The position numbers were made by a program, and so were the translations under genes. Source: a virus. From it: a stretch of DNA of 64,000 nt. A model generated the notes under the pieces. It saw nothing but the letters and a program-made list of their open reading frames with translations. It was not told the DNA's origin and made no database searches. The stretch covers positions 85,125 through 149,124 of the IMG/VR virus record IMGVR_UViG_3300050120_000210; one strand, given 5' to 3'. Below, one piece after another: positions 20,001 to 55,663 of this stretch; the first letter of the stretch is position 1, and the number at the start of each line of letters is the position of its first letter.

Positions 20001-20327
20001 ATGGTCATGCGTCACAAACCGCTCCCGCCTCTTCCGCGCAATCCGTTCTGGCCGTTGAGCCCGATCAAATCGACACCGATGACGATTCACATCCCGGTCG
20101 ATTGTCTCCACAGCGTCAACCAACACGGCGCCGCCCTTAAGACAGAGGTGCGGCAATGGCTCGTCGAGAACACCACCTCTTATGCCTGTCGTGTGATCGA
20201 GAACATCTGGGTCACCCCGGCCGAAAATGCCGCGTGGCGAAACCACCCACTCAATCGCCAGAACATGGCCTTCATCACTTTCGAAAACGAAAATGATCTC
20301 CTGCATTTCAAAATGCGCTGGTCATAA
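20001..20327 (+). CDS. small paralog-family protein (W..EN...F..E.D...FK..W)
   Basis: VRQWLVEN...AFITFENENDLLHFKMRWS. Confidence 0.7.
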   Translation: MVMRHKPLPPLPRNPFWPLSPIKSTPMTIHIPVDCLHSVNQHGAALKTEVRQWLVENTTSYACRVIENIWVTPAENAAWRNHPLNRQNMAFITFENENDLLHFKMRWS

Positions 20328-20399
20328 ATCGGCTGCAACGCCGTCACGAAACCGTCAACCCCAACAATCTTCTTATCCACATATCTTTCATATTGCGTC

Positions 20400-20830
20400 C
20401 GGTGTGGGGCACGGTTAGAAAGAGATTGTTCCGGTCACGGACGGCTTCGGCCGACCAAGACCAGCACAGAAACCGAAAGGCCAATGTGTAGAGGGTAACC
20501 AAAGGAACTATCTAGTCACAGAACCATCGGTTCACCTCGTGAGTTACTGAGCAAACAGTGGTTAGCGCCACAAGGTTACTCAAAAAACAACGAATCAGAT
20601 CGTTAGTTACTGAGCAGGTATTCGGAGGATCGAAGAGCAACGCCTCACCGCCGCGCCCGTAGGTTCACGATAGGTCAAGGGTCCGCCCTTATAGCGGAGA
20701 CGAGAGGTAGCCGTCTTAAAAGGACTAACACTACCCGGAGACGAGATTACTCCGAAACCCGCAAGGGCCAACCCAATCTCAGGTCTCGCTTCGGACCTGT
20801 GACATTCGCGTTCGCGACACGATGGCACTT
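20400..20830 (+). ncRNA. unassigned large structured RNA candidate
   Basis: No credible ORF; UUCG/GAAA/GCAA-capped hairpins on the + strand; several long-range and pseudoknot pairings; downstream hairpin. Confidence 0.7.
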
Positions 20831-20832
20831 TA

Positions 20833-20864
20833 AGGGCCGGAAGTTTTGACCAGCTTCCGGCCCT
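20833..20864. terminator. stem-loop between the ncRNA candidate and the convergent operon
   Basis: agggccggaagt...gcttccggccct 12-bp stem. Confidence 0.7.
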
Positions 20865-20892
20865 GAGCATGTCTGGGATCATTCTGGACCGC

Positions 20893-21171
20893 TCATTCGC
20901 CTCTCCAAAACAGTTCGAACATCAGAGCATCGCGTTCCTCGTAGAAAAGGATCGTCTCGCGTGTTTTCTCCTGCCATTGATTTTCTTGGCTGGGGGCCTC
21001 GATACGCTGGGAATAAAGTCCCCAGCCGCCCCTCGTATTCATATGCAGCCAATCCTTGATGTGCTGACGGACGCGCGACGAGCGCCAACTCGGCTCGCGG
21101 CGATTCACACCCGATTCGGGAATGTCGGCCTTGATGACGTGGGTTGAGCCGAAGGTAAAAGGTTCAAGCAT
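20893..21171 (-). CDS. small paralog-family protein
   Basis: IKDWLHMN...ILFYEERDALMFELFW. Confidence 0.7.
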   Translation of the reverse strand: MLEPFTFGSTHVIKADIPESGVNRREPSWRSSRVRQHIKDWLHMNTRGGWGLYSQRIEAPSQENQWQEKTRETILFYEERDALMFELFWRGE

Positions 21172-21418
21172 CGGTGGACCCCCAGAACATGAAAAACAGC
21201 ACAGCGTCCCGTTCAAGCTCGAACAGCGCCACCGGCGAGGTTACCGATGGATGATAGAACAATGTGACGGTATACAACGCCTGCATATTTGCTTTGAGCC
21301 AGTCCGCGACTGTCGGCGTGAATTTAAGGCCGCGTGTGCCTTCGTAGTAGGCCCCGCCGCCGACGACTAGGTCTACCCGAAAACGATACGAGATACCATT
21401 GATGGGCTGCACGCTCAC
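21164..21418 (-). CDS. small paralog-family protein
   Basis: VADWLKAN...LFELERDAVLFFMFWG. Confidence 0.7.
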   Translation of the reverse strand: MSVQPINGISYRFRVDLVVGGGAYYEGTRGLKFTPTVADWLKANMQALYTVTLFYHPSVTSPVALFELERDAVLFFMFWGSTDA

Positions 21419-21729
21419 TCGAAACCCCAGAACATTTTGAAGAGGGCGGCATCAGATCGGGTGCGAAACAACACTCGGCAGAAATTAACGGTGAACGAAC
21501 TCTGGCCGCTGGCGTCTCGGCGCCAGCCATTCCCGAATTGCACCAGCCACCCCAATTTCGAGCTTCCGAGCAACCATGCGACCACTTCCGACTTGAGGGC
21601 CTTGTCGGCGAAATATGCCGGAGGCACATCGACGATGAACCAGTTCTTCAACAGAGGATCGGCCGGGAAGTGCACCGTTTCGCCGTCGTATCCGACCACG
21701 TCTTTCAGGATGTCTTCCGGCTCCCTCAT
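21415..21729 (-). CDS. small paralog-family protein
   Basis: VVAWLLGS...VLFRTRSDAALFKMFWG. Confidence 0.7.
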   Translation of the reverse strand: MREPEDILKDVVGYDGETVHFPADPLLKNWFIVDVPPAYFADKALKSEVVAWLLGSSKLGWLVQFGNGWRRDASGQSSFTVNFCRVLFRTRSDAALFKMFWGFE

Positions 21730-21983
21730 GACCGGTCCAACGCCCAGACCAAGTTCCAGCGAATGCAGAACACCAGTCGGTCGGCCTCTGTGGCGAATTG
21801 AAGCTCACACGAATCGTCGGGCCAGTGCACGACAACTATGACGATGCTCGTTTCCGCGCACCATCGTGCAGCCTCGTCAGCCAATCGATATTCGCCGCAT
21901 TCGGCGTACACGCTCGGATCGTAGATGCACGCTTTCGCCGACGTGAAGACTTGGCCATCGGTCAGATGGAGGGAAATTGTCAT
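21726..21983 (-). CDS. small paralog-family protein
   Basis: AARWCAET...LQFATEADRLVFCIRW. Confidence 0.7.
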   Translation of the reverse strand: MTISLHLTDGQVFTSAKACIYDPSVYAECGEYRLADEAARWCAETSIVIVVVHWPDDSCELQFATEADRLVFCIRWNLVWALDRS

Positions 21984-22297
21984 GTCAGGTAGAACATCTT
22001 GAAGAGCACGGCGTCTTCCTTGGACCATATCGTGATCCACGTCAGGCCATAGCCCGCAAGAATGGAGATGTCATCGCGCTGGATGGACCGCAGCCATCCT
22101 CGCACATCTGCATTCAAGGTCGTGCGGCGCTGACCTTGGGGCGCGATATATTCCTCCATGATCTCGCCTTCACCGACTTTCGTTTCGTTGAACGTCTTGA
22201 GGAAGACATAGCGCCGCGATCTGTCGATGCGGTCGCGACCGGGCATCAACAGGTTAATGCGATAGAGCGGGTGCTTCATATCGTCGGCGATGGACAT
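21980..22297 (-). CDS. small paralog-family protein
   Basis: VRGWLRS...ITIWSKEDAVLFKMFY; AGGA RBS and TTGACG upstream. Confidence 0.7.
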   Translation of the reverse strand: MSIADDMKHPLYRINLLMPGRDRIDRSRRYVFLKTFNETKVGEGEIMEEYIAPQGQRRTTLNADVRGWLRSIQRDDISILAGYGLTWITIWSKEDAVLFKMFYLT

Positions 22298-25431: not shown

Positions 25432-26094
25432 CTACGCATCTTCATCCGATGCTTCGATATGTTTTAGTTCATCGTAAAGCATTTCGAGAAAGGAAATGAC
25501 TTTGCACTCGTCGTTTGGGCTCCAAACATCCGGCGCGTCGATTTCCACACCCGTGCCTTTGCTCTTAGCACTCACCAGCCAAAAATACAGCCCCTCGTGT
25601 TCAAGATGCCAAATATCGAAACGAAACTCGCTGGTGAACGTCTGTTGACGTTTTCCGAAAATCTTTGCGAGTGTTTCGCGTTCCGCACCCATGACGGTCA
25701 TCGTGCGGTCGAAACCAAGACGCTTATCTCCGTGGCCCGCGAACCAGTCCCGCACAGCGGGTAGATTGGACGAGTTAAGCGGATGAGCATCTTTGTATCG
25801 TGCACGAGTCATAAACTCGACGTTAGGCAGCACCGACTTTGTGGTCAACCAATTTTGGTGCCGAGTATGATATCGTTTCCCAATTGCCAACGACGGTTGA
25901 CCATGATTTCCAGAACAGCCGGAATCATGACAAGCAATTGGCCAGCCGATGATCCAGACAAATGCAGCCCTTGCAGGTTGGTGCAGTCGGTATAAAAGCG
26001 AGGGGCCGCGCCCGGCGGTGAATATGCAACTGGAACAGTCTTGATCGTTGACCGCGAGGGTCGCGACTGGACTAGTTGCAATATCAGGCGTCAC
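25432..26094 (-). CDS. hypothetical protein (true start possibly 25812)
   Basis: ORF coupled to the thrS stop; only the C-terminal 126 aa look protein-like. Confidence 0.45.
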
Positions 26095-27353
26095 CGACCG
26101 AGAACCAATGCCGCCAAATCTTCTCGCTTGACGATATGTTGACCCTTCTCGCCAAGATTTCGAACTGCCGCCGTTCCGGCTTCTTGTTCTCGTCCGCCAA
26201 CCGCGATGATGTAGGGCACAGCCATGAGACTATGCTCTTTCACCTTCTGAGAAACGTTCTCGTCCCGCACGTCCAAACTGACACGGGCGCCAGAGGCTTC
26301 CAGATCGTCACAGACGGCCTTTGCGTATTCTGCGGCCTCCGGCTTGATCGACATCACAACGGCCTGCACAGGGCTCAGCCAAGCCGGTAGACGGCCATCG
26401 TAGTGTTCCAGCAGGATACCGATGAACCGTTCCATCGATCCGAGGATCGCACGGTGTAGCATGACGGGAGTATGGGCCTTGCCATCTTCGCCGGTGTAAC
26501 GCGCGCCGAGCGCCTGTGGCAGCACGAAGTCGAGTTGCAGGGTGCCGCATTGCCATTCGCGACCCTTGTTGTCCTTGAGGGCGAATTCGAGCTTCGGGCC
26601 ATAGAAGGCGCCCTCGCCCGGATAGACCTCATAGACCAGCCCAGCAGCGGTCACAGCCTGAGCCAAAGCGGCCTCGGCACGATCCCACACTTCGTCCTCG
26701 CCAGCACGGACTTCCGGCCGGGTGGAGAAACCGATCTTCACGTCTTCGAACCCAAAGTCCTTGTAGACGGCAAGCAGCAGTTCGCAGAAAGCCTTGGTCT
26801 CGGCCACGACCTGATCTTCAGCGCAGAAAATATGCGCGTCATCTTGAGTGAATTGACGAACGCGCATGATGCCATGCAGTGACCCGGAAGGTTCGTTGCG
26901 ATGGCAGCAACCAAACTCGGCCATCCGCATCGGAAGCTGGCGATAGCTCACGGTATCGGCGTTGAAAATCTGAACGTGGGCCGGACAGTTCATCGGTTTG
27001 AGCACATGAGTCGCCTTGGCGGCTTCATGCAGATCGCCGGGCACGAAATGTCCGCCGGAGCCGATATCGTCGCGATAGCTGTAGAAATCCCCGGTAGAGA
27101 AAATCTTGTCACCATAGTTCGCCCAGTGTCCCGATTTCTCGAACAGGGATCGGTCGAACAGTTGCGGGGTCTTCACCTCGAAATAGCCACCCGCCTTCAG
27201 CTTGCTGCGGATATAGTTCTCGATGGTGTTGAACAGGGTGAAGCCATTGGCGTGCCAAAACACGCTGCCTGCGGCTTCTTCTTGGATGTGGAAAAGACCA
27301 AGCTCGCGGCCGAGCCGTCGATGGTCGTTGTCAGCAAGCGAATCGTCGCTCAT
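26091..27353 (-). CDS. thrS: threonyl-tRNA synthetase lacking the N-terminal TGS/editing domains
   Basis: [68 protein letters not shown]. Confidence 0.95.
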
Positions 27354-28949: not shown

Positions 28950-28973
28950 AAAAAACCTCTGTAATAGCCGTAT

Positions 28974-29678
28974 TTATACGGGTTGATATTGACCAGCCGG
29001 AGTGTGCTGGATTGTTTTGTTAATGTGGAACTCATTCCACGGCAGACCCAATTTCTGGATGTGATGGACTGATAAAGTGTGGGGGCAAAGCAGGCCCGTC
29101 TCGGCGTAATATTCTTCGAGCTTCATGCCGATTGTCGCGAAACGAGAGACGTTCTCATAGGAGCCGATCTGGAACATATCGCCGGTCCCGCCGCCCATGT
29201 GGTTGCGGTGAGCCAGCGTATAGAACGTGTTCGGATCGAAGTTCGGCATGGCGTCGTGCAAGATCATGTCCGGCCGCATCCGAATCACGAGATCGTATTT
29301 CTTGCCGGTCTGCATGATGTGCTCTTCGAGCAGGTTCATGGCGGCGCCCATCTTGTAGAACATCGAGATAATGTTCCGGGGCCGGTGATAGAAGTTCGGG
29401 AACCCTTCGGCACGCTTCGCGAAAGTCGTCAGATAGTTGTCGAAATGCTCGACCACCATCTTGATCGGCTTGTATGCATCACAGGCCGCGTGCGGGTCGA
29501 GGGCATCACTCTGCTCATGAATGCCGATGGCGCCTTCCTGCGGCACCCACCAGCCTTCGTTGTCCCACGTATGGATGAAAACGTCGGGACTGTAGCGGTC
29601 GATGAACTGCTCTTTGAAATTGGGGAACACTTGGTTCCAGCAGCGCATGTGACCAGAAAGAACAACAGCGACGTTCAT
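28974..29678 (-). CDS. putative glycosyltransferase
   Basis: AVVLSGHMR...DVFIHTW...YDLVIRMRPD; located in a glycan cluster. Confidence 0.6.
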   Translation of the reverse strand: MNVAVVLSGHMRCWNQVFPNFKEQFIDRYSPDVFIHTWDNEGWWVPQEGAIGIHEQSDALDPHAACDAYKPIKMVVEHFDNYLTTFAKRAEGFPNFYHRPRNIISMFYKMGAAMNLLEEHIMQTGKKYDLVIRMRPDMILHDAMPNFDPNTFYTLAHRNHMGGGTGDMFQIGSYENVSRFATIGMKLEEYYAETGLLCPHTLSVHHIQKLGLPWNEFHINKTIQHTPAGQYQPV

Positions 29679-29935: not shown

Positions 29936-30092
29936 TAACCAAATTGAGATTGTCTCGGGCGACGTTCAGTTTTTCGATTGCTTTCTCAAGGTGAAAATTG
30001 TCTTCACCTTCAATGAACTCATCTCGAATTTTAGACATCGTCTCCTCGATTTCAGACACGGTGTCAGTCAACCTATCAGCAAGAGCGGTCAT
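29907..30092 (-). CDS. small coiled-coil hypothetical protein
   Basis: TGATG coupling to the upstream gene. Confidence 0.5.
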   Translation of the reverse strand: MTALADRLTDTVSEIEETMSKIRDEFIEGEDNFHLEKAIEKLNVARDNLNLVIADEAADGN

Positions 30093-31471
30093 CAGACTTT
30101 GCCCTTGTATTCTTGGAGGAAGGCATTCAGGTCTTCGGGCGTGCCGATGCCCCACATCGCGTCGATGGTCTTAACGCGAATTTTCTTGCCGTCTTCGATG
30201 GCTTGGTTGAACACCGGCGCCACGTAGAACTCGCCGTTGACACGAATGTCTTTCTCGATCATCTGCTCGGCGTATTTCACGAAATCCGATCCGTGCTGCC
30301 AGTAGTAGAAGCCAACCGTGGCTTGGTCGCTGATGACGCGTTTCTCAGCCACCTCGGAGACGAAACCGTCTTCGCCGACCTTGGCGTAGGACCACTTCGG
30401 GTGGTTGGCTTCGAATGTTAGGATGCCGCCGTCGATGGTGTCGGCCTTGAAGGCATACATGCATTCGTTGGCGTTCCACTGCACGAATTGGTCAGAGTTG
30501 GCGAAAAACAACGGAGCATCGCTGTCGATGTGCTTTTTTGCCAAAAGGGCTGTGCAAGCTGCACCCTCGGTGATGCCCTCGGTGAGCACGATCTTACAGC
30601 CCGGCGCGATCTTTGTCAGAACGTTTTCCAGATCGTATTTCTCGTAATGCTCTTTCTGAGCGACGAAAATGTAGTTCGCCTCGATGTTGAGGTTCTCGAC
30701 GACCACTTGGATCATGGGTTTGCCGTGGACCTCAATCAGCGGCTTCGGGAACGTGTAGCCCGCTTGAGCGAACCGCGATCCGGCGCCAGCCATTGGGATC
30801 AGAACGTTGAGCTTCTTGTCCCGCCAAGGAATAGCCTTGCCGGTGTTCTTGTTTTCCATGACTGCGATTTCCTCAAAGATGCGAGCTTGGTCCCAGTCGG
30901 CGGCGTGCTCGACGGGCAAAAGGTGGGCTCCCGAATCTAGCGCGCCTTGGCGGCCGATGTGAGAGTCTTCCACAATGATGGTGTTCTTGGGCAACGCGTT
31001 GAGCGCCGTCATGCACTGCCAATACATTTCAGGATAGGGCTTGGTGCGTTTCACGTCCTCATTGCTGACGTAGAAATCCACGTATTCGAGCACCCCGATG
31101 GCCATGAGCGCCAGCTTGACCGTCTCGCGAATGCTGTTGCTCGCGCAGGCGATTTTCCAACCGTGGGCTTTGATCGCCTTGAAGGTCTCGACCGCACGCT
31201 CATCGACCGGAAATTGCTTGATGAGTTCGAAGGTCGCGGTCTGTTTGTCCTGCCACACCTTGTTGTAGGCGCCCTTCGGAAGACCCTTGCGCTCACTGAG
31301 CATCTCAAGTTTCCGCGTGGTGTTGAGACCATCGTAGAGGCTGAGATGTTCTTCGCGCGAGATGACGAATTGCTCGCCCGCATCAGCCAGCGCCGCGTTC
31401 AAGGCATGGTAATGCAAGTCCCGACTATCGAGCAGCACACCATCCAAATCGAAGATGATGAGCCTAGTCAT
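30092..31471 (-). CDS. HAD phosphatase fused to GT-A sugar-phosphate nucleotidyltransferase
   Basis: FDLDGVL, ASNS, KP.P, VEDS (HAD) followed by IPMAGAGSRF...PKPLI...EK...GEFYVAPVFN...GTPEDL. Confidence 0.9.
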   Translation of the reverse strand: MTRLIIFDLDGVLLDSRDLHYHALNAALADAGEQFVISREEHLSLYDGLNTTRKLEMLSERKGLPKGAYNKVWQDKQTATFELIKQFPVDERAVETFKAIKAHGWKIACASNSIRETVKLALMAIGVLEYVDFYVSNEDVKRTKPYPEMYWQCMTALNALPKNTIIVEDSHIGRQGALDSGAHLLPVEHAADWDQARIFEEIAVMENKNTGKAIPWRDKKLNVLIPMAGAGSRFAQAGYTFPKPLIEVHGKPMIQVVVENLNIEANYIFVAQKEHYEKYDLENVLTKIAPGCKIVLTEGITEGAACTALLAKKHIDSDAPLFFANSDQFVQWNANECMYAFKADTIDGGILTFEANHPKWSYAKVGEDGFVSEVAEKRVISDQATVGFYYWQHGSDFVKYAEQMIEKDIRVNGEFYVAPVFNQAIEDGKKIRVKTIDAMWGIGTPEDLNAFLQEYKGKV

Positions 31472-32285: not shown

Positions 32286-32347
32286 GAATACTCTCCGAGG
32301 ATTATAGTAGTATTTATATCCCACGAAAGTAATGGTGTTGGCGATAT

Positions 32348-33729: not shown

Positions 33730-33779
33730 AGGATTATTTAGGCTTGACCTCGCTTTCGAAATTGGGTTTGGTTCCCCAG

Positions 33780-34517: not shown

Positions 34518-34808
34518 CACTTTCAGAGTCATGTGCTCGCCGTAGTGCAGCTTGAAATAGACGGCCTCTGCCTCAGACTCGAACTCCATCGTCAGAATGA
34601 CCGTGTGCTGAAGACCATCCGGGCGTTCGTGCGTGAGCACTTGGGCGCGGACGTGGGTGATGAACAGATTCCAATCCACGATGTCGGCCGCCGGGTCCAC
34701 CTCCCGTTTCAGCGCATCGCGCATCAGATTGACGACGGCCATGTGGATCGCGTCTTGGCGATTGTAGGCGGGGCCACAGCCCATCCGCATGACTTCGTAT
34801 TCGAGCAT
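34434..34808 (-). CDS. small paralog-family protein
   Basis: MEFESEAEAVYFKLHYG. Confidence 0.65.
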   Translation of the reverse strand: MLEYEVMRMGCGPAYNRQDAIHMAVVNLMRDALKREVDPAADIVDWNLFITHVRAQVLTHERPDGLQHTVILTMEFESEAEAVYFKLHYGEHMTLKVLPDKHLNKNGVVARRHRKRNTVAALDD

Positions 34809-42017: not shown

Positions 42018-42481
42018 CTACTTTTTACGATCTCTCGTAATTATTTTCGTTCACCAGATGGTGGAAGCCGTTGGGAGAGCGCCGCTGCCCCAGCCGTGAT
42101 TTGGAAAGTAGCGACCCCTTTCGGAAGACGCAATATCCTTTTTCGCAATTTCGTGACGAAGCCTGTGGATAACTCGCAAACGAAACAACGAGGGGTCGTC
42201 AAGCCGTTTGGCCCGGCATTCTCGTTGAGCCAGCAGCCTCGTATCTTGATGACTGAGAGCAAACTCCCGCCTGTGGGAATGGCGTCCCCGGCACGTTCCC
42301 GAGGCCCTCCACTCAAAACCGCACAAGGCTCCAAAGCCCGCCGGTCCACAGCCCGTGTCATACCACGGCGCCACTCGTCCAGTTCTGATTAGCAGACAAC
42401 AAGTTACCAGTCAATCTGCGCGAAAACTCCAATTTTGAGTTTCGATAAATACTCGAAGCCTAATTGGATCATCTCCCTTCA

Positions 42482-45400
42482 ATGACACTGCGTCTCACAA
42501 CTCTGAATCTATCAGGATCGCTCACAGTGGGTAGGGATACCAATCCCGCTATCATGTGGGTTGCTCCGATGAACAAGGTTCTGGGTGCATTCAACGAAGG
42601 CGACGAGATCGAAACCGTCTTCAAGGCGACCGGCAAGAACCTCACCGCGCCCATCACCTATGAGCTTCACGTTGGTTCGCTGCCGGACGGCATCAGCTTT
42701 GATGAGACCAGCGGTTTGATGAGCGGTATTTTCACCGATCAAGTTGGCCTGTTCGATATCATCATTCGCGCGCAGAGTGGCGGAACGTTCCTCGATCATC
42801 CGTTCCGGCTCATCACCGGGCCGCATCCGTCGCCTGTCTGGATCACGCCTTCAGAGATTCTTGATTTTGGAAACGTAAACGAAACGGCGAACACCGCAGT
42901 TGAAGCCGTCGATCCCTATGAGCTTCCGGTTCAATATTCTGTGGTCGGCGGGCAGCTTCCGAGCGGGGTGTTCTTGGACCCCAACACCGGCGCCATCACT
43001 GGCACCTACCCGAACCTCGACGATGACCGCGAATACGATTTCACGTTGGCCGCGTCGAACGGCGACACCGCAGTGTTCCGTGACTTCAGCATCTATGTCG
43101 CAGCCGTCCCGCCTGAGTTCGCTTCGATTTGGGTCACTCCGGCCGGTTCGATTGGCTCTGGTTACGAACTCTCGTTCTTTGAGAGCACCGTGCTGGCCAT
43201 CGACCCGCGAGACGATCACATCACTTACGTGCGTGTGGCTGGCAACATTCCGCCGGGTCTGCAACTGGACGCGAACACCGGCCTGATGTCTGGCACGCTC
43301 GACGCGCAGCCGGACGACACCGAGTTCAAGATGATCTTGGGGGCGCGAAACAGCGTCTACACCACGAAGCGTCTGTTCCTCATCACCGTCAAACACGACG
43401 TTGCCCCGAGCTTCGAGATTCCGGGCGGGGACACGGGTCATCCGTTCCCCATCGGTCAGTTCATCGAAGGTTTCTCGATGAGATTCACACCGAACGTCAC
43501 GTCGAATCCTGAACTCCCGATCAGCTACACGGCGGTCGGTCTGCCTGATAACGTTGGCATCGACGTGAACAACGGCATGGTTTCGTCCGATTCCTTGCCG
43601 CTGGTGCCAGAGCCGCGCAACAGCGACGAGACCGTTCAGTTCTCGATCACCGCATCCGATGGTTTGAAGTCAGCTTCGCATCAATTCGTTTTCGTGATCC
43701 TGCGCGACTTGCCGCCGGTCTGGCAGCCGGTCGGCAACAGCCTCGGCCAAGATTTCGGAGGCACGGTGTTTGCTTCTCCGTTGCCGCTCGCCGTTGATGT
43801 TTACGCCCGTCCCGTTGTCTACACGCTATCCGATCAAACTCCGCTTCCCGATGGTCTGACGTTCGACCCGGATCAAGGCGAAATCAGCGGCAACCTTCCG
43901 CCCACACCCGATGACGATATCGACATTCCGCTGACGATCACTGCGGTCAGCGGTGTCAATCCGGCGATCAAGGATTGGACGATTACGGCATGGCACAACA
44001 TCCCGGCTATCTGGGATACTGACGCTGGCTCGCTCGGCATCATCATCGAGAACACCAACTCATCGGTAAGCGTCGCCGCGCACGATTTCCACGGTGAGCA
44101 GGCCGTGACCTACGCGATGGCGAACGCGACAGTTCTGCCGCCGGGTCTCACGTTGATCGCGAACTCAGGCGCCATCGTCGGCACGACGCAGAGCATTTCC
44201 GATCCCAATCTGGAAACGACGGTCTTCACCATCGAAGCGTCGTTCAACGGTCTGCTGCCGACCACTCGCGATTTCTCGATCAGCGTGCAAAAGAACTATC
44301 CGCCCGTGTGGGACACCCCGGCCGGAAGCCTGCTCTCTGTCCTCGCCCAGCAAGATTTCGGCGTTTCCGTCGTCGGTCACGATCCGAACGGCTCGCCGTT
44401 GATCTATGCGATTATCGACACGAACATTCCTGATATTCCCGACATCGTCACGACGCCCACTGACGTGACGGGTCGATTCCCGCCGACAACCGTCGATCAA
44501 ACATTTTTCTACAAAGTTTCGATCAGCGATGGCGTGAACCTGCCTATCGAACGAGACTTCACGCTGACTTCGTTGGCCAACTTGCCGCCGGTTTGGGTGA
44601 CGAACGCGGGTACTATTCTCGACGCATTCGAACATACTGACGTGAGCATTCAACTCGATGCGTTCGACCCAGAGGGTGCGGATATCGAGTTCTACATCAC
44701 GCCCAACACCAACGATATCTACAAAGAAGGCAACACTGTCTACCTTACGATGTCAAACACCGGCCTCGTCACCGGCACCCTTCCGCACGTCGATTCAGAC
44801 ACGACCATTTCGTTCACCGCAATTGCGTGGGATCAAACCGGCGAGCGCGGTAACAATCGCTATCTGGCAACGAGCCAGAGTTTCGACATCGTCGTGCGGT
44901 TCAACACCCCGCCGACGTGGAATACGGCCGCCGATATTGAAGGTCTTGAACGCACTGCGTTCTCCTTGACGTTCAGCGCCAGCGGCGCGGGTAATCTTCC
45001 GCAAATCGTTTACACGCTGAAGAGTGGATCGTTCCCCACAGGTCTGACCATGGATGCCAACGGCGTGCTGAGTGGTATCCTTCCGGCCGTAAGCTCGGAC
45101 CAAGATTTCATCTTCACGATGACCGCCGACAACGGCATCAAGCAGTCCGACCGAACCTTCACATTCACGGTGGTTGAGAATGTGCCCCCGGTTTGGGACA
45201 CCCCCGCCGGAGAGTTCATCAGTCATCTTGGACAGATTCCGTTCAGCGCCCAAATCATCGGCCACGATGACAACTCGCCGCTTGGTAACCCGGTGACGTA
45301 TACCCTCACCGATGTGGGTAATGTGCCTGTCACCGTCTCCTTCACCGCCGCCAATCCGATCACCGCCAACTCGAACATCACCGGCGTGATGAGCGGGCAT

Positions 45401-48400
45401 TTGCCGCTCGTGGAGAACTCGGACGCGCTTTACACCTTCACCGCCGCACTGAACGATGGTCTTGCCCCGCCGGTCAGCCGCACGTTCACAATTCGCAATC
45501 TGGCCGACCGTGATCCCCTGTGGGGAACACCCGCTGGCTCGATTGGCGTCGGCACTGAAAACAAGCCCTTCACGTTCACGCTTGGTGCAACGGACCCCGA
45601 AGCAAACACGGTTGTGTATGCTCTCGCCAATGGCACCAATTTGCCGGATGGACTTACGCTTTCGAGCAGCGGCTTCATCAGCGGCACTATGCCGCCCGCA
45701 GCATCCGATACCGATTATCCGTTCTCGGTTTTCGCGAGTGATGGAACACACGAATCGTTCCGCGATTTCACCGTCACGGTGCAGCATGATTTCCCGCCTG
45801 TCTGGGTTACTCCCGCAGGTAGCTTGGGCACGATCCTTGGTGGTTTCAGTTCAAGTTTCCGCATCGAAGCGACCGATCAAAACCCGCACGACACGGTCAC
45901 TTACAGCGTGGTCAGTGGCTCATTGCCGCCCGGCCTTGCGCTACTAGACACCGGTTTCATCAACGGCGCCATGGACACTATCCCTGCCGATGAAGACTAT
46001 AACTTCACGGCACAAGCGACAGACGGCACGAACCCGATCACACGGGCGTTCGCGATCTCTGGTGTGCGAAACCAGCCTCCGGTGTTTGTGCCGGGTGGCA
46101 GCCGCCTTGCTCGTCAAAAAGAACAGACGAACTTCACCGCGTTCATCGACGTGTTCGATCCTGACGGTGGTGATATTGCCGAACGCAAAGTCACCGGCTT
46201 GCCTGATGGCCTGACCTTCAACACCAGCACATTCAACATCGAAGGTGTGCTGCCTGCGGTCACCGAAGACAAAACGTATTCGTTCGATTATCTGGCGAAT
46301 GACGGCATTGTCGCGAACACGCAGACTTACACCATCGACGTGCTGTTTAGCTCTCCACCGGTCTTCCAAGGGTCTTCTACGCTCAATCGAGCGGTTGAGG
46401 GTCAAATCTACGCTGGCGACCAGATCACGGCCCTCTCAAATGGGTCCACGGTATTCTATTCGGTGTCTGGTGGCGAAATGCCGGACGGCATCAACTTGGC
46501 GTCCAACGGACAGGTTACCGGCGTGGCGCCGGGTATAGACACCGACACCAACTTCATCTTTGACGTGACCGCATCGACTGGCATCAAGTCCAGCGTTCGC
46601 ACCTACACGCTATCGGTCATCAAAAACCAGCCGCCTGTGTGGGACAGCAATGCAACGATCTCGCCGTTCGCGCAAGAAGGCCAGCACATCTCCTACTCGT
46701 TGGTCGCTCACGACATCAACGGGCAGAACCTCACTTACACCTTCCAGAGCGGTGCGATCCCTTCCGGTTGGATTTACAACGCTACCAGCAATGGCGTGAC
46801 CATTTCGGGGACCGGTCAAGACCTGACCTCTCTGGCCAACGACGCGGTCTATACCTTCACGATTGGCGCGTCGAACGGCTTCATCCGTACTGATCGTCTG
46901 TTTACGATTGTCGTGCATTACAATTCGCCGCCGATTTGGGGTGGTAATTCCGTCGTCGCGAACGTGGTCGAACAGACTGCGGTGGTGACCAGCGTGCACG
47001 CCACCGATCCCGAAGGCAACGCGGTGACTTACGCGGCCAACACCGCGACCTTTGGTTTCCCGTCGTGGCTGACGCTCAATGCGAACAGCGGGCAACTGAG
47101 CGGCACCGTGCCGCCGGTGCTCTCCAATTCGTCTGTGCCGTTTACGATTGCAGCGTCGGACGGCAATCGTTCGGCCAATCGCGACTTCTCGATCAACATC
47201 ATCCACAACGTCTCGAAGGTCGATCCCTTCGCAAATGCCGTGTCGCTCATCATGCACATGGAAAACTTCAACGACTTCGCGACGCTTCCTCCGCGCACAT
47301 TCTCGGTGACTTCTCCGGCCGCGTTGTCTTCCGCGCAGTTCCTCTTCGGGAGCAAGAGCCTGTTCGCCAATGGCGGCGCCATCACTACCCCATCTACGAC
47401 GGACACGTTGCTGGCGAACTCTGAATGGACTGTGGAGTTCTGGGCTTTCCCGACTTCCACGGGAACACAGCGCGTGTTGAACAGCAACGGACCTACCAAT
47501 TTCTGGAACGTGAACATCGCTTCTGGAAATTGGGTGTTCAACGCAACGAATAGCGGCGGGACGATCATCGGTGGTGGGCTCACTCTTGGCGCCATCGTCT
47601 TGAATCAGTGGCAGCACGTCGCGATCACCCGAGGCACGGATGGTGTCATTCGTGGGTTCGTCAATGGTGTCGTCGCTGGGGCCACGATCTCTGGCGCCGT
47701 CAGCAGCAGCGGCGGTAGCGGCTTGTTCTCGATTGGCGGCGATAGCAATGACAGTGTGTTCTCGACCGTCTTCATGGACGAGGTTCGTATCACGCAGAAG
47801 CAACGCTACACCGCGACCTTCACGCCCGTCACAAACCCGTTCCCGAATCCGCCTCTGTGGTTGACCGCCAACGCAACACTGATCGCTAGCGGCCCGGAAA
47901 ACAGTGTCGTGACAGCCCCAACCCCGGTGGTTGCTTACGACAACGACAACACTGGCTCAATGTCGTCATATACGATCACTTCGACAACGCCATTCTCCTA
48001 TGGCGTTGCGGGGAACACCGGCGTCTTGAACGGTTTCTTCCCGACGCTAGTGACTGACGCGAACTTCCCGATTGTGACTGTGGCCCGTGATGGCAACGGC
48101 AACTGGACCGCACCGCGCACTTTCTTCGCCAAGTCCAATGCCGCCACCGCCGCCAACATGGTCATGTCGTGGCGCTTCAACAAAGACATGACTTCGAGCG
48201 ACTTCTCGCTATCGACTGGCAACGCGGTTGTTGGACAACCGGGCATCAGCGGAGGCACGGCGACTTATGCTCAGGCGCCCGCTCCGCATGGCACTGAAAC
48301 AGCCATGTGGACAGGGAACACCGGCACCGGGCTCTCGTGGGATACAGGTGTTGGTCATTTCAACTTCCTGTCCGGCTCGTTCACGCTTGAAATGTGGGTC

Positions 48401-48841
48401 TATATGGCTGGCGGTTATCCGCAAAATGTGGGCGGCGGAAACCGGGCGCTATTCATCATCACGCCGTCAGCCTTCAACAGCAATTTCCGACTGTTCCGAT
48501 ATGAGTCGTCGCCATCTCCGACCGGAAACATGGCTATGACCTTCATGGACATCAACCGACCGGCCGGGTGCCCAACGGGTCAGGATTTGGTGCCAAATGC
48601 ATGGCAGCACGTCGCGTTCACCAGAAACGCAACCACCAGCACGAACACGCTTTGGTTGAATGGTGTTGCCGGGCCGAGCACAACGACATCAAGTCCCGCA
48701 ATCGGGACATTCGATAACTGCAACCTGCTGATAAACCCGGCGGCGTCCACAGCTTATGTGAACGTCTTCTATCACTCGATCATTTTCTGGAACGTGCTGA
48801 AATACACGAGCACGTTCACCCCGGTCTGGCCGGGCTACTAA
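42482..48841 (+). CDS. second giant Ig-repeat + LamG fibre protein, about 2120 aa, paralog of 7252..18651
   Basis: About 16 He_PIG-like repeats, LamG, Ig, SWRFNK..APxPHGT LamG-like module; TAAATA at 42446. Confidence 0.85.
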   Translation: MTLRLTTLNLSGSLTVGRDTNPAIMWVAPMNKVLGAFNEGDEIETVFKATGKNLTAPITYELHVGSLPDGISFDETSGLMSGIFTDQVGLFDIIIRAQSGGTFLDHPFRLITGPHPSPVWITPSEILDFGNVNETANTAVEAVDPYELPVQYSVVGGQLPSGVFLDPNTGAITGTYPNLDDDREYDFTLAASNGDTAVFRDFSIYVAAVPPEFASIWVTPAGSIGSGYELSFFESTVLAIDPRDDHITYVRVAGNIPPGLQLDANTGLMSGTLDAQPDDTEFKMILGARNSVYTTKRLFLITVKHDVAPSFEIPGGDTGHPFPIGQFIEGFSMRFTPNVTSNPELPISYTAVGLPDNVGIDVNNGMVSSDSLPLVPEPRNSDETVQFSITASDGLKSASHQFVFVILRDLPPVWQPVGNSLGQDFGGTVFASPLPLAVDVYARPVVYTLSDQTPLPDGLTFDPDQGEISGNLPPTPDDDIDIPLTITAVSGVNPAIKDWTITAWHNIPAIWDTDAGSLGIIIENTNSSVSVAAHDFHGEQAVTYAMANATVLPPGLTLIANSGAIVGTTQSISDPNLETTVFTIEASFNGLLPTTRDFSISVQKNYPPVWDTPAGSLLSVLAQQDFGVSVVGHDPNGSPLIYAIIDTNIPDIPDIVTTPTDVTGRFPPTTVDQTFFYKVSISDGVNLPIERDFTLTSLANLPPVWVTNAGTILDAFEHTDVSIQLDAFDPEGADIEFYITPNTNDIYKEGNTVYLTMSNTGLVTGTLPHVDSDTTISFTAIAWDQTGERGNNRYLATSQSFDIVVRFNTPPTWNTAADIEGLERTAFSLTFSASGAGNLPQIVYTLKSGSFPTGLTMDANGVLSGILPAVSSDQDFIFTMTADNGIKQSDRTFTFTVVENVPPVWDTPAGEFISHLGQIPFSAQIIGHDDNSPLGNPVTYTLTDVGNVPVTVSFTAANPITANSNITGVMSGHLPLVENSDALYTFTAALNDGLAPPVSRTFTIRNLADRDPLWGTPAGSIGVGTENKPFTFTLGATDPEANTVVYALANGTNLPDGLTLSSSGFISGTMPPAASDTDYPFSVFASDGTHESFRDFTVTVQHDFPPVWVTPAGSLGTILGGFSSSFRIEATDQNPHDTVTYSVVSGSLPPGLALLDTGFINGAMDTIPADEDYNFTAQATDGTNPITRAFAISGVRNQPPVFVPGGSRLARQKEQTNFTAFIDVFDPDGGDIAERKVTGLPDGLTFNTSTFNIEGVLPAVTEDKTYSFDYLANDGIVANTQTYTIDVLFSSPPVFQGSSTLNRAVEGQIYAGDQITALSNGSTVFYSVSGGEMPDGINLASNGQVTGVAPGIDTDTNFIFDVTASTGIKSSVRTYTLSVIKNQPPVWDSNATISPFAQEGQHISYSLVAHDINGQNLTYTFQSGAIPSGWIYNATSNGVTISGTGQDLTSLANDAVYTFTIGASNGFIRTDRLFTIVVHYNSPPIWGGNSVVANVVEQTAVVTSVHATDPEGNAVTYAANTATFGFPSWLTLNANSGQLSGTVPPVLSNSSVPFTIAASDGNRSANRDFSINIIHNVSKVDPFANAVSLIMHMENFNDFATLPPRTFSVTSPAALSSAQFLFGSKSLFANGGAITTPSTTDTLLANSEWTVEFWAFPTSTGTQRVLNSNGPTNFWNVNIASGNWVFNATNSGGTIIGGGLTLGAIVLNQWQHVAITRGTDGVIRGFVNGVVAGATISGAVSSSGGSGLFSIGGDSNDSVFSTVFMDEVRITQKQRYTATFTPVTNPFPNPPLWLTANATLIASGPENSVVTAPTPVVAYDNDNTGSMSSYTITSTTPFSYGVAGNTGVLNGFFPTLVTDANFPIVTVARDGNGNWTAPRTFFAKSNAATAANMVMSWRFNKDMTSSDFSLSTGNAVVGQPGISGGTATYAQAPAPHGTETAMWTGNTGTGLSWDTGVGHFNFLSGSFTLEMWVYMAGGYPQNVGGGNRALFIITPSAFNSNFRLFRYESSPSPTGNMAMTFMDINRPAGCPTGQDLVPNAWQHVAFTRNATTSTNTLWLNGVAGPSTTTSSPAIGTFDNCNLLINPAASTAYVNVFYHSIIFWNVLKYTSTFTPVWPGY

Positions 48842-49098: not shown

Positions 49099-49553
49099 AT
49101 GAGCATAGTGGTGTCGTCCACGGGCAGCTTAATACAGCGCACTGGATCGACGTTGACTACGTTATGCCGCCATTGATCTGGTGGCACTCGTTCGCCGTTC
49201 CGAACGGTTGAGCGAGCCTTCAGGCCACCGAGCCGCGTCAATTCCAAGACTTTGCCGATTTCCAAGGCGTGCGTGTTGCTGGTCTTCACCGAATAGCACA
49301 CGTAGGAATCAACGACGATCTCGCGGCCGGTCATATCCATGACTGGAAGCACTTTTGGATCACCGAACTCGTCCAATTCTTCCAGTGCCGAGTAGTGCAG
49401 GTTGATTTCGGTTCCACTGTCGAGAGACAGGTAAATCTTGCCCCCACTTTCGTATTGGAATTTACCGAAGTTGCCCTTGTCTTTGCCGGTCGCCACGTAG
49501 AGACGTGGACGATCCTTGTTCTTCACGATACGCTTGAACTGCCACTGTTTCAT
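49056..49553 (-). CDS. hypothetical protein (SH3/KOW-like beta-rich)
   Basis: 165 aa coupled ORF; DMTGREI.V..YV.Y. Confidence 0.6.
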   Translation of the reverse strand: MKQWQFKRIVKNKDRPRLYVATGKDKGNFGKFQYESGGKIYLSLDSGTEINLHYSALEELDEFGDPKVLPVMDMTGREIVVDSYVCYSVKTSNTHALEIGKVLELTRLGGLKARSTVRNGERVPPDQWRHNVVNVDPVRCIKLPVDDTTMLMWLMQDFAELVKSK

Positions 49554-50074
49554 GAAAACTTCAGCTTCGCATTGATCGCATCCACGCTCGACTCGAACGT
49601 GATTATCATGGTCGTCTTGCCTTGGATGTGAAAGCGGTTACGGAGGTTGGCGATGCACCATTCCGACACGATTTCTTTGTCTTCACCGTTGCGGACTTCG
49701 ATTGTGTAGAACTCGCCATTTGCGTCGCGCTCCCACGTCTGCGCTTGCACGCTTTTCAGACGACTGAACTGACGATGCGTCAGGCGTTTGCCCTCATGGA
49801 ACGGAAGAACCATTTGAGTGCGGGCGCCGTAATCGGTTGGGTGCAGAAGACGGAACCGGTCATCGATTTTGGCGAAGAGAGATACTTTGAAATGATGGCG
49901 TGTGTAAGGAGCCGTGGGCTCCGGGTCTGGGTGCGATTGAAAGATCGCTCGATCCATGAATGAGAACCACAGTTGGCGAGGATCATACTTGCCGCGCATC
50001 ATCATGAAGTCGTCGCCGACCACATAGAAGTTACCCTGTTCCGGGGTCTTAGCTGCAAGCTTGGTGACGCGCAT
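49550..50074 (-). CDS. protein with paralog-family C-terminal domain
   Basis: VSEWCIANL...IITFESSVDAINAKLKF. Confidence 0.7.
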   Translation of the reverse strand: MRVTKLAAKTPEQGNFYVVGDDFMMMRGKYDPRQLWFSFMDRAIFQSHPDPEPTAPYTRHHFKVSLFAKIDDRFRLLHPTDYGARTQMVLPFHEGKRLTHRQFSRLKSVQAQTWERDANGEFYTIEVRNGEDKEIVSEWCIANLRNRFHIQGKTTMIITFESSVDAINAKLKFS

Positions 50075-53035: not shown

Positions 53036-53625
53036 AGGGCCGCCTCTTCGTTCATGAACGCCACCACGTCGAACTCATCGAGCGACGGCGCCTCGTAGCT
53101 TCCGAGCATGTCTTGCACGACTTGGCGCGGGATCGTCTTACCCGTGGCCACGCCGCGCGCAAACAGGCGTTGATGCAGAATGGCCAGCGGCAGTTCGAAC
53201 ACGAGGGCGATGCGGACATAGTGCTTCGGCACCTGAGACATCCACCGATTGCGCGACTTCACGCGCATGTTGGTGCGGTCCACGATGATGTCCTTACGCT
53301 CGGCGACCGCCGTGCGAAGTTGTCCACCCATCACGCTTTCCAGCGCCTTCATGTCGATCCCGGCCGCATAGACTTCAGAGTAGGTCTTGCCTTCGGCTTG
53401 GCCCTTGGCTTCGATCTGATCGTCGCTGCTCAGCACAACGACATCCCGCGTGGTTTCGTCGAGGTGCTGCTTGATCCAAGTGCTCTTGCCCGTGCCCGGA
53501 GCCCCAACGGGGATAATGAGATTCGGACAGCGATCCATCACCCGTCCAATCGAAATCAGACGGTGTTCGATGACCGCACGTTCGCGCTCCGAAAGCGCCC
53601 CGATGATTTGTTCCACCGACTTCAC
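53020..53625 (-). CDS. P-loop kinase (AAA_33, polynucleotide-kinase-like)
   Basis: GAPGTGKST, SSD, VDRTN....R, R...R lid, P...E.FD. Confidence 0.8.
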   Translation of the reverse strand: MKSVEQIIGALSERERAVIEHRLISIGRVMDRCPNLIIPVGAPGTGKSTWIKQHLDETTRDVVVLSSDDQIEAKGQAEGKTYSEVYAAGIDMKALESVMGGQLRTAVAERKDIIVDRTNMRVKSRNRWMSQVPKHYVRIALVFELPLAILHQRLFARGVATGKTIPRQVVQDMLGSYEAPSLDEFDVVAFMNEEAALCSTQ

Positions 53626-54197
53626 GCGGCTTCTCCAAGAAATTGATCGATCTGCTCTGCCACGGAAGGGTCCAGCAGGACTTCGAAATGGTTTTGCGGG
53701 ACGGTGATGTATCGCGGGCCGGGCAGGGCCATTTGGCTCCGCACGGTGACAACCCCGTCCGTCCGTTCACCCATGACGCTCAGACCGGAGTCGGTCACGA
53801 ACGACAGGATTGGAATCTGCGGCGGATCATTCTGAAGCGCCGCAAGGATGGGGCTCTGCTGACTGATGTCCCGCATAAGCTGGGTGGGCATGAACCAGCG
53901 CATGACCGATGCCGCGAAACTTCCACCGAAGGGCGTTCCCATGGTGGCGATCTTGGCAACCGGCGAGACTTGGGCCACCGACGCGGCGATTACACCGCCG
54001 AGGCTGTGACCGATGATAATCGGCGGGACCGTGCACTTCGCGACTTCGGCGCGGAGGTAGGAGATGGTTTCGACCAGCGGAGTGATGCTCTCGTAGGAAA
54101 TATCCACTGCTTCATGCGGACGCAGTTGCCCCTTCAGCCAATTAAAGCTGAGAGAGGTGCTCGCTGCACCGTGTATGAACCAGATTTGAGGCTTCAC
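53622..54197 (-). CDS. alpha/beta hydrolase
   Basis: FIHG, GHSLGG, TPFGGS, DGVV...SQ, NHFEVL. Confidence 0.85.
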   Translation of the reverse strand: MKPQIWFIHGAASTSLSFNWLKGQLRPHEAVDISYESITPLVETISYLRAEVAKCTVPPIIIGHSLGGVIAASVAQVSPVAKIATMGTPFGGSFAASVMRWFMPTQLMRDISQQSPILAALQNDPPQIPILSFVTDSGLSVMGERTDGVVTVRSQMALPGPRYITVPQNHFEVLLDPSVAEQIDQFLGEAA

Positions 54198-54264
54198 GCT
54201 TCCCCGCCATAGTTGGACACTTACGAACCAAACTATGGTGGAATATCAATTTCGTCAACGAAAA

Positions 54265-54711
54265 TCAGTTGCCTTTGGCTGCGGCATTTCTCGCAGCATT
54301 CGTGGCTCGCTCCGTTGCGTCCCCTGCTCGTTTCGCAGCCGCGCTGGCGTTCTTCATCAGACCGTCGATGCTGGTGTCCACGCCCTTGAACAAGCCGTCC
54401 ATTGTGCGGTCGAAGTCCTTGAAGATCGTGTCCATGTCTTCGTCGAAAGTGGCGATGGCTTCGTCCATCATCTTCCGAGTTTCGTCGTCGAGTTCGGCGT
54501 CCGTCAAATGTACGGTCTCACCATTGCGAGTGAAGGTGAACGATCTGCTCGTGGTGGTCGCGCTACCTGATGGATTCGTGAATTTCTGATAGCTCGACGA
54601 GGACGAGTAGTTCGTCCCGGCGCCCATGATCGAGGCCATGCCTTCGAAAATCGAGGCGAGACCTTCACCGAGTGAAGCAAAGCCGGAACGGAAAGAGCGC
54701 AACATGGACAT
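54265..54711 (-). CDS. hypothetical amphipathic protein
   Basis: TTGACG-N17-CATATC promoter; 148 aa. Confidence 0.6.
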   Translation of the reverse strand: MSMLRSFRSGFASLGEGLASIFEGMASIMGAGTNYSSSSSYQKFTNPSGSATTTSRSFTFTRNGETVHLTDAELDDETRKMMDEAIATFDEDMDTIFKDFDRTMDGLFKGVDTSIDGLMKNASAAAKRAGDATERATNAARNAAAKGN

Positions 54712-54801
54712 TTGGAAGATATGGACCGATTTTGTTAGATCGTCAAGACCGCTAAGTAATTGAGTAATCGCGAAAAGTAAGGTCTACCCGTGAAGAAAAA
54801 C

Positions 54802-54948
54802 ATGACCAAAGCCATCTTTGTTATCCTTCACTTGCTTGCAATGATGGCGATCATGGCTGGGCTGAACTATTTCCAGATGCGAGCCATGCAGAAAGCTGCT
54901 CATCCGGCGCCGCATCACACCACGATCACAACGATTACCGCATCTTAA
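54802..54948 (+). CDS. 48-aa single-TM peptide (not in ORF track)
   Basis: MTKAIFVILHLLAMMAIMAGLNYFQMRAMQKAAHPAPHHTTITTITAS; TAAGTA upstream. Confidence 0.4.
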   Translation: MTKAIFVILHLLAMMAIMAGLNYFQMRAMQKAAHPAPHHTTITTITAS

Positions 54949-55663
54949 AGACCAACGCATCCTTGTCATTGGTGAAGAGCCAACCGTTCGACATTCGATA
55001 GACCGGATGGCTGCAATGGCCGACGATCCACGCCCACGTCGTCAAGTCTCCGAGCTTGCGAGGATTTGAAAACGTGATGTATCCGTTCGAATCAGGAACC
55101 GGCAGAGGGTCCTCGAACCAGATGCCTTTCACTTCCCCGGACGAGAGCGTCGGAATCTTCGTTTCGGCGAGGTCAAAATCGTAGAAAAATGTCCACTTGT
55201 AGTGATCGAGCCATGAGACGAAATGCTCACGCGTCTCTTCTGATCCGAACGCAGGGACTATCCCGATTCGGCTACGAAGCACGGCGCCGTAGTCCGTCAA
55301 ATCCGCCCCGTGCAATTCCACCCAGACCTTGTAGTGATGATGGTTGCAGGCATTGTCGTCGATCCTCATTTCTACGAGGAAGAGTTCATTGCAGAGATTG
55401 AACGTTTTGCCCTCCGGCATCTCGCCGCCGGGTCCGCCAAGAACAAGACCGGAAAGAGAGATAGCCTGTGACGAACCAATCGTCACAGTAGTGGCGTGGC
55501 CATATCCGAACCCCATGCCTCCGGCCACACCCATTCCGATGCCACCAGCGCCACCCGCGCCAACTATGCCGTGTATGATGCCGGTATTTCCGTTGAATAC
55601 TCCTCCCGTGGGATAAGGAACAGCGGCGGCAGTTAGATTGGGTTTGGTTATGGTCGTCTTCAT
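54935..55663 (-). CDS. Gly-rich N-terminus plus paralog-family C-terminus
   Basis: WAWIVGHC...WLFTNDKDALVFKMR. Confidence 0.65.
   Translation of the reverse strand: MKTTITKPNLTAAAVPYPTGGVFNGNTGIIHGIVGAGGAGGIGMGVAGGMGFGYGHATTVTIGSSQAISLSGLVLGGPGGEMPEGKTFNLCNELFLVEMRIDDNACNHHHYKVWVELHGADLTDYGAVLRSRIGIVPAFGSEETREHFVSWLDHYKWTFFYDFDLAETKIPTLSSGEVKGIWFEDPLPVPDSNGYITFSNPRKLGDLTTWAWIVGHCSHPVYRMSNGWLFTNDKDALVFKMR

Follow-up and report, generated by a model that had tools for sequence, protein, structure and literature searches.

Here we describe a family of small proteins encoded in a window of 64,000 nucleotides (bases 85125 to 149124) of a 149,124-bp viral contig, IMG/VR record IMGVR_UViG_3300050120_000210, together with its copy numbers, distribution, predicted topology, acidity, and pattern of divergence between orthologs and paralogs. 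The members share a C-terminal motif and are real genes for an uncatalogued domain of ∼60 to 75 residues that belongs to phages and mobile elements. We infer, with a probability of about 0.5, that the most likely role of the family is that of a repertoire of mostly acidic protein binders directed against the host, in takeover or counter-defence. The contig is a fragment of a very large T4-like phage of soil or peat; it carries a T4-type major capsid gene (gp23), and the only DNA sequencing run with near-identical sequence is a peat metagenome, from which the contig probably derives. CheckV puts the completeness of the contig at 26%, so the full genome probably measures several hundred kb.

The family was delimited with a hidden Markov model (HMM) that was built from the copies and iterated over all six-frame open reading frames (ORFs) of the 149-kb contig. 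The HMM matched 20 ORFs at E <= 2e-6; the next match stood at E 0.35, and the best match among reversed sequences at 0.28. Because the HMM was trained on the same copies that it then scores, independent support counts for more. Three ORFs outside the seed were recovered (contig positions 68926, 81381, and 34414), the first two of which are credible, and public gene calls agree with several of the member ORFs. The twentieth match, at contig 34414-34692, was rejected as a member and is probably false, as it lacks the motif and has an isoelectric point (pI) of 11.8. The contig-wide count that a preliminary description of this DNA had proposed thus comes to 19 credible copies on 149 kb, 11 inside the window (20001 on the plus strand and 20893, 21164, 21415, 21726, 21980, 34434, 34808, 38166, 49550, and 54935, all on the minus strand) and 8 upstream of it (contig positions 12170, 18373, 36313, 36591, 65905, 68926, 69240, and 81381). 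That description had listed about 12 ORFs as sharing a strong form of the C-terminal motif, and 11 of the 12 fall into one family by the HMM. The twelfth, listed as 33780 (ORF 33744-34517, plus strand), drops out, since it has only a look-alike tail (...AVLVKMFVG) and is absent even from a relaxed HMM list at E <= 10. The ORFs at 37654 and 57088, which had been put forward as weaker examples, are not family members.

In the contig copies, the C-terminal signature reads E-[IV]-x-E-W-[CL]-x-E-N-x-x-G-x-W ... F-x-F-E-D-E-x-D-A-x-x-F-K-[LM]-R-W-stop. Its first part, the helix 1 signature W-[CL]-x-E-N followed by G-x-[WY], is carried by most window members, and the pattern F-x(4)-D-A-x-x-F-K-[LM]-x-[WF] is matched near the stop codon in 17 of the 19 copies, the remaining two being divergent. 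Mean nucleotide identity between copies over the motif is 50%, and synonymous codons alternate freely at the invariant Asp, Ala, Lys, Leu, and Arg positions. This indicates that conservation acts at the protein level and is not that of a DNA repeat. The shared C-terminal motif is real and lies far beyond chance.

Conservation was calculated over 179 aligned domains, whose consensus is [VI]-x-[IVL]-P ... E-[IV]-x-E-W(99%)-C(63%)-x-E-N(84%)-C-x-G-x-W ... [FIV]-x-F(92%)-E-[DN]-E-x-D(94%)-A-[VI]-L-F(97%)-K(79%)-[LM]-R-W(87%)-stop; the residue after G-x in the helix 1 signature is aromatic in 87% of them. Buried aromatic positions account for much of this pattern (the Trp in helix 1, the Trp opening strand 2, the Phe-x-Phe closing strand 3, and, with Leu, the Phe and Trp in helix 2), and the remaining fixed positions are two helix caps (Asn and Asp) and acidic residues. 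Among basic residues, only the Lys-x-Arg that closes helix 2 is fairly conserved, with Lys at 79% and Arg at 52%. The N-terminal extension and the hairpin loop differ in length and sequence between paralogs and are kept between orthologs. When the product of the 20893 gene was folded with AlphaFold2 using 74 sequences, the model (predicted local distance difference test score [pLDDT] 78) placed a strand at residues 12-15, a helix at 35-44, strands at 49-56 and 68-75, and a helix at 78-89. The predicted fold is a three-stranded ferredoxin-like half sandwich (beta-alpha-beta-beta-alpha) that ends at the C terminus. The proteins are mostly acidic, with a median pI of 5.3 and a median net charge of -3 among 117 small members; for the domains of the 19 credible copies, pI values lie between 4.4 and 9.9.

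We compared the model with solved structures by means of an exhaustive structure aligner. The best match was an ACT domain (Z 5.8), and the next neighbours, at Z 4.5 to 5.6, were the U2AF homology motifs (UHMs) of PUF60 and U2AF35, a SPOR domain (5.3), ribosomal protein S6 (4.8 to 5.1), and assorted RNA recognition motifs (RRMs). RRM and UHM chains reached Z 5.0 to 5.6, level with ACT, SPOR, and S6, and all matches fell under Z 8, the aligner's level for a common arrangement. Since ACT, SPOR, and S6 score like RRMs, only the general fold class is common to these proteins. A Foldseek search of the model against the PDB and BFVD found nothing at E <= 1e-3. Prediction of a homodimer from two domain copies (alignment A2) gave a score of 0.02, which is uninformative either way.

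The RRM (PF00076) is a four-stranded antiparallel sheet with the order beta1-alpha1-beta2-beta3-alpha2-beta4, and its signatures are the RNP1 octamer [RK]-G-[FY]-[GA]-[FY]-[ILV]-x-[FY] on strand 3 and the RNP2 hexamer [ILV]-[FY]-[ILV]-x-N-L on strand 1. The preliminary description had called the C-terminal motif RRM-like, and the F-x-F-x4-D-A spacing does resemble that of RRM strand 3 and helix 2, but the RNP1 and RNP2 consensus sequences are absent. Across the 179 domains, strand 3 reads x-[FIV]-x-F-E-[DN]-E without a conserved basic-Gly-aromatic start, and strand 1, alignable in about one-third of the members, reads [VI]-x-[IVL]-P. Also absent is the fourth RRM strand, as the model comprises three strands and two helices and most members reach their stop codon 1 to 3 residues past helix 2. 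RRM profiles gave no match in 10 window members at E <= 1 or in 74 members at E <= 0.1. The UHM is a protein-binding variant of the RRM in which an acidic helix A and an R-x-F before strand 4 bind a Trp-bearing peptide. Helix 1 of the family is acidic too (E-x-x-E-W-x-x-E-N), but the chain stops before the position of the R-x-F loop. The PUF60 and U2AF35 UHMs and the eIF3b RRM, which align to the family model at Z 5.0 to 5.6, share with it the ferredoxin-like strand-helix-strand-strand-helix order and, following strand 3, an acidic loop and a helix that opens with Asp-Ala. An acidity like that of the UHM would suit peptide or protein ligands. Taken together, these data do not support membership in the RRM family. 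The fold class that had been guessed was nonetheless reasonable, since the copies represent one small alpha/beta domain with a predicted ferredoxin-like topology, and of the two structural checks that had been suggested, AlphaFold returned the ferredoxin-like order whereas Foldseek returned no match at E <= 1e-3.

The family is large. Run against 1.84 billion proteins, a profile of the 19 domains matched 600 cluster representatives at E <= 1e-3, most of them 60 to 110 residues long with little beyond the domain and some with two tandem domains. A separate search for longer fused forms turned up none, which is weak as evidence on that point. For 74 members there was no meaningful match in Pfam, PHROGs, NCBIfam, or PDB sequences, and ten longer members contained no known domain. 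Neighbouring clusters in the Atlas are all viral and unnamed. A back-translated motif pattern hit at least 120 loci in IMG/VR, and 118 of those listed hold HMM-confirmed members; the 120 listed loci (1.0 Mb) contain 302 HMM members in all, and at least 11 of the matched IMG/VR contigs are longer than 250 kb. In whole-record profile searches, uncultured T4-like phages of 608, 480, 436, 415, and 266 kb gave 47, 28, 48, 71, and 36 matches, respectively, and all five carry gp23. Nine adjacent members form a tandem run in the related phage G004.

Among cultured phages, a whole-record profile search gave three weak matches, annotated as hypothetical, in Agrobacterium phage Atu_ph07, and none in T4, KVP40, P-SSM2, phiM12, HTVC008M, XacN1, or SCTP-2. 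The expectation that T4-like cyanophages carry the motif was not borne out by these records. Atu_ph07 (Polybotosvirus) is a 490-kb T4-like jumbo phage, and its three weak matches compare with 19 copies on the present 149-kb fragment. One of its proteins, AUZ95014.1, is a divergent member (HMM E 1.6e-6) with the sequence ...SWCRENCSGYY... and a degenerate tail; its BFVD model is a weak fold match to the family, its annotation is hypothetical, and no study of it was present among the papers searched. A search of papers for the motif string likewise returned nothing relevant. Whereas the whole-record profile search did work, tblastn of three members against GenBank phages found nothing, even at E 0.1 to 1. 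Alignment A2 has no stretch conserved enough for a related-locus search, and such a search of viral contigs with a single protein or a three-ortholog alignment found nothing. A first metagenome scan with a single protein was also empty, and a second gave a metagenome contig, L142, that is syntenic with the window.

When the same motif pattern was run against prokaryote genomes (596 billion bases), only 21 hits were obtained, with HMM support for a member at 16 of these loci. Microvirga and Methylobacterium account for eight of the 21 (L155, L156, L158, L159, L161, L163, L167, and L149), and a Sphingobium metagenome-assembled genome (L162) has 4 family copies. At the Alphaproteobacteria loci that we checked, the neighbours include integrase, VapE-like, and resolvase genes, which suggests that these members probably reside in integrated mobile elements. 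The occurrences in Alphaproteobacteria hint at the host range of the phages. A comparable case is Bacillus phage G, in which a zinc ribbon has expanded to ∼35 copies that are proposed to be transcription factors, an expansion described in a review as "unprecedented" (Iyer et al. 2021, PMC7824862). In both cases, a jumbo phage has multiplied one small domain into dozens of diverged copies whose function is inferred only. The present family, however, is alpha/beta without zinc ligands, its carriers are T4-like phages, apparently of Alphaproteobacteria, and its 28 to 71 matches per genome equal or exceed the number in phage G.

The argument for a repertoire of binders comes from the way in which the copies have diverged. 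Full-length orthologs at 53 to 74% identity were found for five copies, two of them outside the window, and the ortholog alignments keep the paralog-specific N termini and loops. Paralogs, in contrast, match each other at BLASTP E < 1e-3 in only 8 of 190 pairs, and none exceeds 35% identity over >= 30 residues. High identity between orthologs against low identity between paralogs suggests that the duplications are old and that each copy is maintained for its own surface. Judged from these sequence comparisons, conservation at 53 to 74% points to purifying selection on each copy, and the overall pattern is the one expected of a diversified binder rather than of proteins with a single shared ligand. 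We propose that a stable and mostly acidic scaffold may have been multiplied and diversified in very large T4-like phages, that every copy would have its own binding partner, host proteins being the likeliest, and that the binders would act in host takeover or counter-defence. Several observations weigh against this proposal. Three of the six independent window clusters lie within 1 kb of an RNA gene or non-coding gap, a share somewhat above the ∼12% of the window that these zones cover. The best structural matches are below Z 6, a range reached by unrelated small alpha/beta domains, and the fold is itself predicted. Finally, a domain pI of >= 7 is seen in 5 of the 19 credible copies, and acidity, although it speaks against general nucleic-acid binding, is still compatible with it.

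A more specific scheme arises from related giant phages, in which the family domain and a fragment of the major capsid protein are joined in small ORFs, their order being reversed between the two cases found (L133:497-958 in G005 and L131:1033-1584, minus strand, in G004). The same capsid fragment is joined to a different carrier in G002 (L143:474-1076, minus strand). This fragment, the part of the major capsid protein that is conserved best, aligns to T4 gp23 residues 89-133 (E 5e-11), which we take to be the region holding the Gol peptide, a trigger of the Lit abortive-infection protease. In addition, Gp23 matches occur in 13% of the members of an Atlas cluster that lies close to the family. 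The Gol peptide, a stretch of 29 residues from the best-conserved part of gp23, binds EF-Tu and activates the Lit protease (PMC3014915). The capsid-fragment ORFs in G002, G004, and G005 could be decoys for capsid- or EF-Tu-sensing defence. By extension, the family might be a phage-encoded library of small binders in which each variant neutralises a different host sensor or factor and some present bait peptides, with the fusions as possible decoys against capsid-sensing immunity; we regard this fuller version as unlikely. No fusion of the domain to a capsid fragment is present on our contig, and the decoy hypothesis concerns the family in other giant phages rather than the window.

The preliminary description had instead seen the family as RRM-like proteins that bind a neighbouring ornate RNA, other phage RNAs, or tRNAs as an RNA-protein system. 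The RNA in question lies in the non-coding gap at 20328-20892, which is outside the family and has no Rfam match. Six members do flank it geometrically, but they form two units only, namely, the gene at 20001-20327 and a five-gene array at 20893-22297, and the gap is directly abutted only by 20001 and 20893. The five minus-strand genes, running from 22297 to 20893, overlap by ATGA, GTGA, or 8 nt, which, as read from the sequence, suggests one translationally coupled array. The neighbouring RNA looks real. In a soil metatranscriptome, a 205-nt contig identical to 20622-20826 was present at a depth of 562, and three partial variants had 90 to 95% identity. The flanking and family genes had no cover there, although the contigs come from a small run and are uninformative on expression of the family. 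A 205-nt contig without cover of its flanks means that the RNA may be stable and ∼200 to 250 nt long, shorter than the gap of 450 to 560 nt.

The syntenic contig L142 shares window positions 10 to 30 kb at ∼70% nucleotide identity and has orthologs of 21980, 21726, 21415, and 20893 in that order, then an RNA match of 172 nt, and then tRNA-Val. The match corresponds to window 20710-20879 (82.6%) and covers the 3′ part of the gap only. Orthologs of 21164 and 20001 are lacking in L142, and a different minus-strand ORF takes the place of 20001. A comparison of L142 9694-9981 and 10498-10959 with window 21190-21737 and 19991-20710 shows gain or loss of entire genes at the array as well as next to the RNA. 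Co-occurrence of the RNA and the family across phages was thus found in this syntenic relative only, and the RNA beside the array in L142 reflects shared ancestry, not independent linkage. BLAST with the RNA interval found no match in the five giant phages (28 to 71 family matches each), in GenBank phages, or in the 120 listed member-bearing loci.

Several observations do speak for an RNA-protein system: the ferredoxin-like topology, with RRMs and UHMs among the nearest solved folds; the RRM-like spacing of strand 3 and helix 2; the six copies around the gap and the 38166 gene 743 nt from tRNA-Asn; the abundance of an apparently real RNA and its partial retention beside the array in L142; and the wealth of translation genes in the window, with three tRNA genes, two aminoacyl-tRNA synthetases, and a CCA-adding enzyme. 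Against it stand the missing fourth strand, RNP motifs, and RRM profile matches, the equal scores of ACT, SPOR, and S6, and a conserved sequence made up mostly of core, cap, and acidic residues with no conserved basic patch beyond the tail Lys and Arg. The median pI of 5.3 also argues against general nucleic-acid binding. Moreover, the first 85 kb of the contig, devoid of tRNA genes and Rfam matches, contains 8 of the 19 copies, and on a crude gene map 13 of the 19 have no non-coding gap of >= 250 nt within 0.5 kb. The members in integrated elements further suggest that the domain works outside giant phages and without the RNA. We therefore find no support for binding of ornate RNAs or tRNAs by the family and consider such a system improbable. 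The adjacency is best explained by the location of both the family and the RNA in an accessory part of the genome that is rich in small genes and tRNA genes. This negative is useful, as it argues for studying the neighbouring RNA in its own right rather than as a partner of the family proteins.

We also considered that the proteins might be packaged and injected, with the constant C-terminal domain docking on a virion partner (capsid interior, portal, or tail) and the variable N terminus as cargo. T4 internal proteins provide the model for this idea; they have a common N-terminal capsid-targeting leader that is cleaved by the prohead protease. T4 hyperplastic-region early genes, for their part, encode many small, fast-evolving, phage-specific proteins that are thought to act on the host. 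The present family resembles both in being small, fast-evolving, and located in accessory regions beside tRNA genes. It differs in that T4 has no family member and in that the constant part is a folded C-terminal domain, not an N-terminal leader. Packaging would agree with a T4-like phage bearing gp23, with constant ends joined to N-terminal extensions of varying length, and with a C terminus fixed 1 to 3 residues from the stop codon in most members. Many members, however, are the bare domain without cargo. The N termini of the 19 copies share no T4-type leader or cleavage-type motif, conservation being all C-terminal, and the members in bacterial integrated elements stand beside integrase, VapE-like, and resolvase genes rather than virion genes. 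On this evidence, packaging seems to us a poor prospect. Little more can be said for small regulators of DNA or the transcription machinery, for which the multiplied zinc ribbons of the jumbo phage G offer a precedent (PMC7824862), or for acidic DNA mimics that block DNA-binding host proteins. The mostly acidic charge would suit a mimic, and small size and operon organization recall T4 early genes, but profile searches of the members found no helix-turn-helix, zinc ribbon, or other DNA-binding signature, and the same charge speaks against direct DNA binding; we give these roles a low likelihood. Least probable is a mostly selfish or neutral amplification in which the conserved C-terminal coding segment serves mainly as a recombination junction for cassette gain and loss and the proteins have little function, since, despite tandem arrays with overlapping stop and start codons and the whole-gene gain or loss seen against L142, homologous recombination would find little to work with in a motif that has 50% mean nucleotide identity and varies freely at synonymous sites, and the full-length orthologs point to purifying selection on each copy.

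The window members differ considerably in length and in HMM score. The plus-strand member at 20001-20327 (108 amino acids [aa]; 49 bits) ends ...FENENDLLHFKMRWS-stop and is identical to gene call P0007; it starts 10 nt after tRNA-Val, and its end borders the gap. Across the gap, the last gene of the array, 20893-21171 (minus strand, as are all that follow; 92 aa; 70 bits; gene call P0153), has the orthologs P0154 (74%) and P0015 (63%). The preceding gene, 21164-21418 (84 aa; 53 bits; gene call P0009), has a GTG start that overlaps the upstream stop codon (GTGA), and 21415-21729 (104 aa; 42 bits; gene call P0021) has an ATGA overlap with its upstream gene and the orthologs P0024 (56%) and P0094 (45%). 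For 21726-21983 (65 bits), in which a 9-aa tail follows the motif, the longest ORF reaches 22040, but translation probably begins with the ATG at 21983, creating an ATGA overlap; its ortholog is L142 9160-9702. The first gene of the array, 21980-22297 (61 bits), probably starts at the ATG at 22297 within an ORF that reaches 22459, and conservation with its ortholog, L142 9116-9448, begins at about that ATG.

Outside the array, the weakest window member is 34434-34817 (27.6 bits; E 4e-7), of which the C-terminal half alone aligns and in which the motif (...EAEAVYFKLHY) is followed by a 35-aa tail. Its 3′ end overlaps by 84 nt that of the convergent plus-strand ORF 33744-34517, whose 257-aa product belongs to no known family. 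The adjacent member, 34808-35089 (50 bits), is ∼93 aa long from the start supported by its ortholog, P0019 (71% over 92 aa), the longest ORF reaching 35224. A divergent member at 38166-38585 (37 bits; E 6e-10) ends ...GDLLYLKMLLE-stop, and its start is uncertain. The contig's top score, 71 bits, belongs to 49550-50074, a protein of 174 aa with a 90-aa N-terminal extension. The longest member, 54935-55663 (∼242 aa; 37 bits), has a Gly-rich N-terminal half and ends ...DKDALVFKMR-stop, without the final Trp.

Translation and nucleotide genes of the phage include, on the minus strand, those for a class II aminoacyl-tRNA synthetase that has an HGTP anticodon domain (26091-27353), a lysyl-tRNA synthetase of class I (35821-37389), a HAD-nucleotidyltransferase fusion (30092-31588), and a staphylococcal-nuclease homologue (38781-39305) and, on the plus strand, that for a CCA-adding or poly(A) polymerase-type enzyme (55736-56893). 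Two giant plus-strand genes, 7171-18651 and 42464-48841, encode proteins of 3826 and 2125 residues with 19 and 11 He_PIG Ig-like repeats, respectively, plus Laminin_G_3 lectin-like domains, and both products probably serve as fibres or for decoration. Exact T4-type late-promoter motifs (TATAAATA) occur in the window at 28971-28978 and 32311-32318 on the minus strand, where 0.11 would be expected by chance. The whole contig has five exact copies of TATAAATA and none near the family genes, in a scan of low power for expression timing. A scan for sigma-70-type promoters and terminators around the five-gene array gave a site count not above that of shuffled sequence.

Giant phages encode hundreds of proteins of unknown function, and the family described here is one of the largest gene-family expansions in phages, and its definition gives annotation pipelines a name for many "hypothetical proteins." With 60 to 90 residues, its members are a compact experimental target, and cultured Atu_ph07 carries some of them. 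If they do bind host proteins, the copies would constitute a natural library of small inhibitors and, at the same time, a map of what giant phages must disarm.

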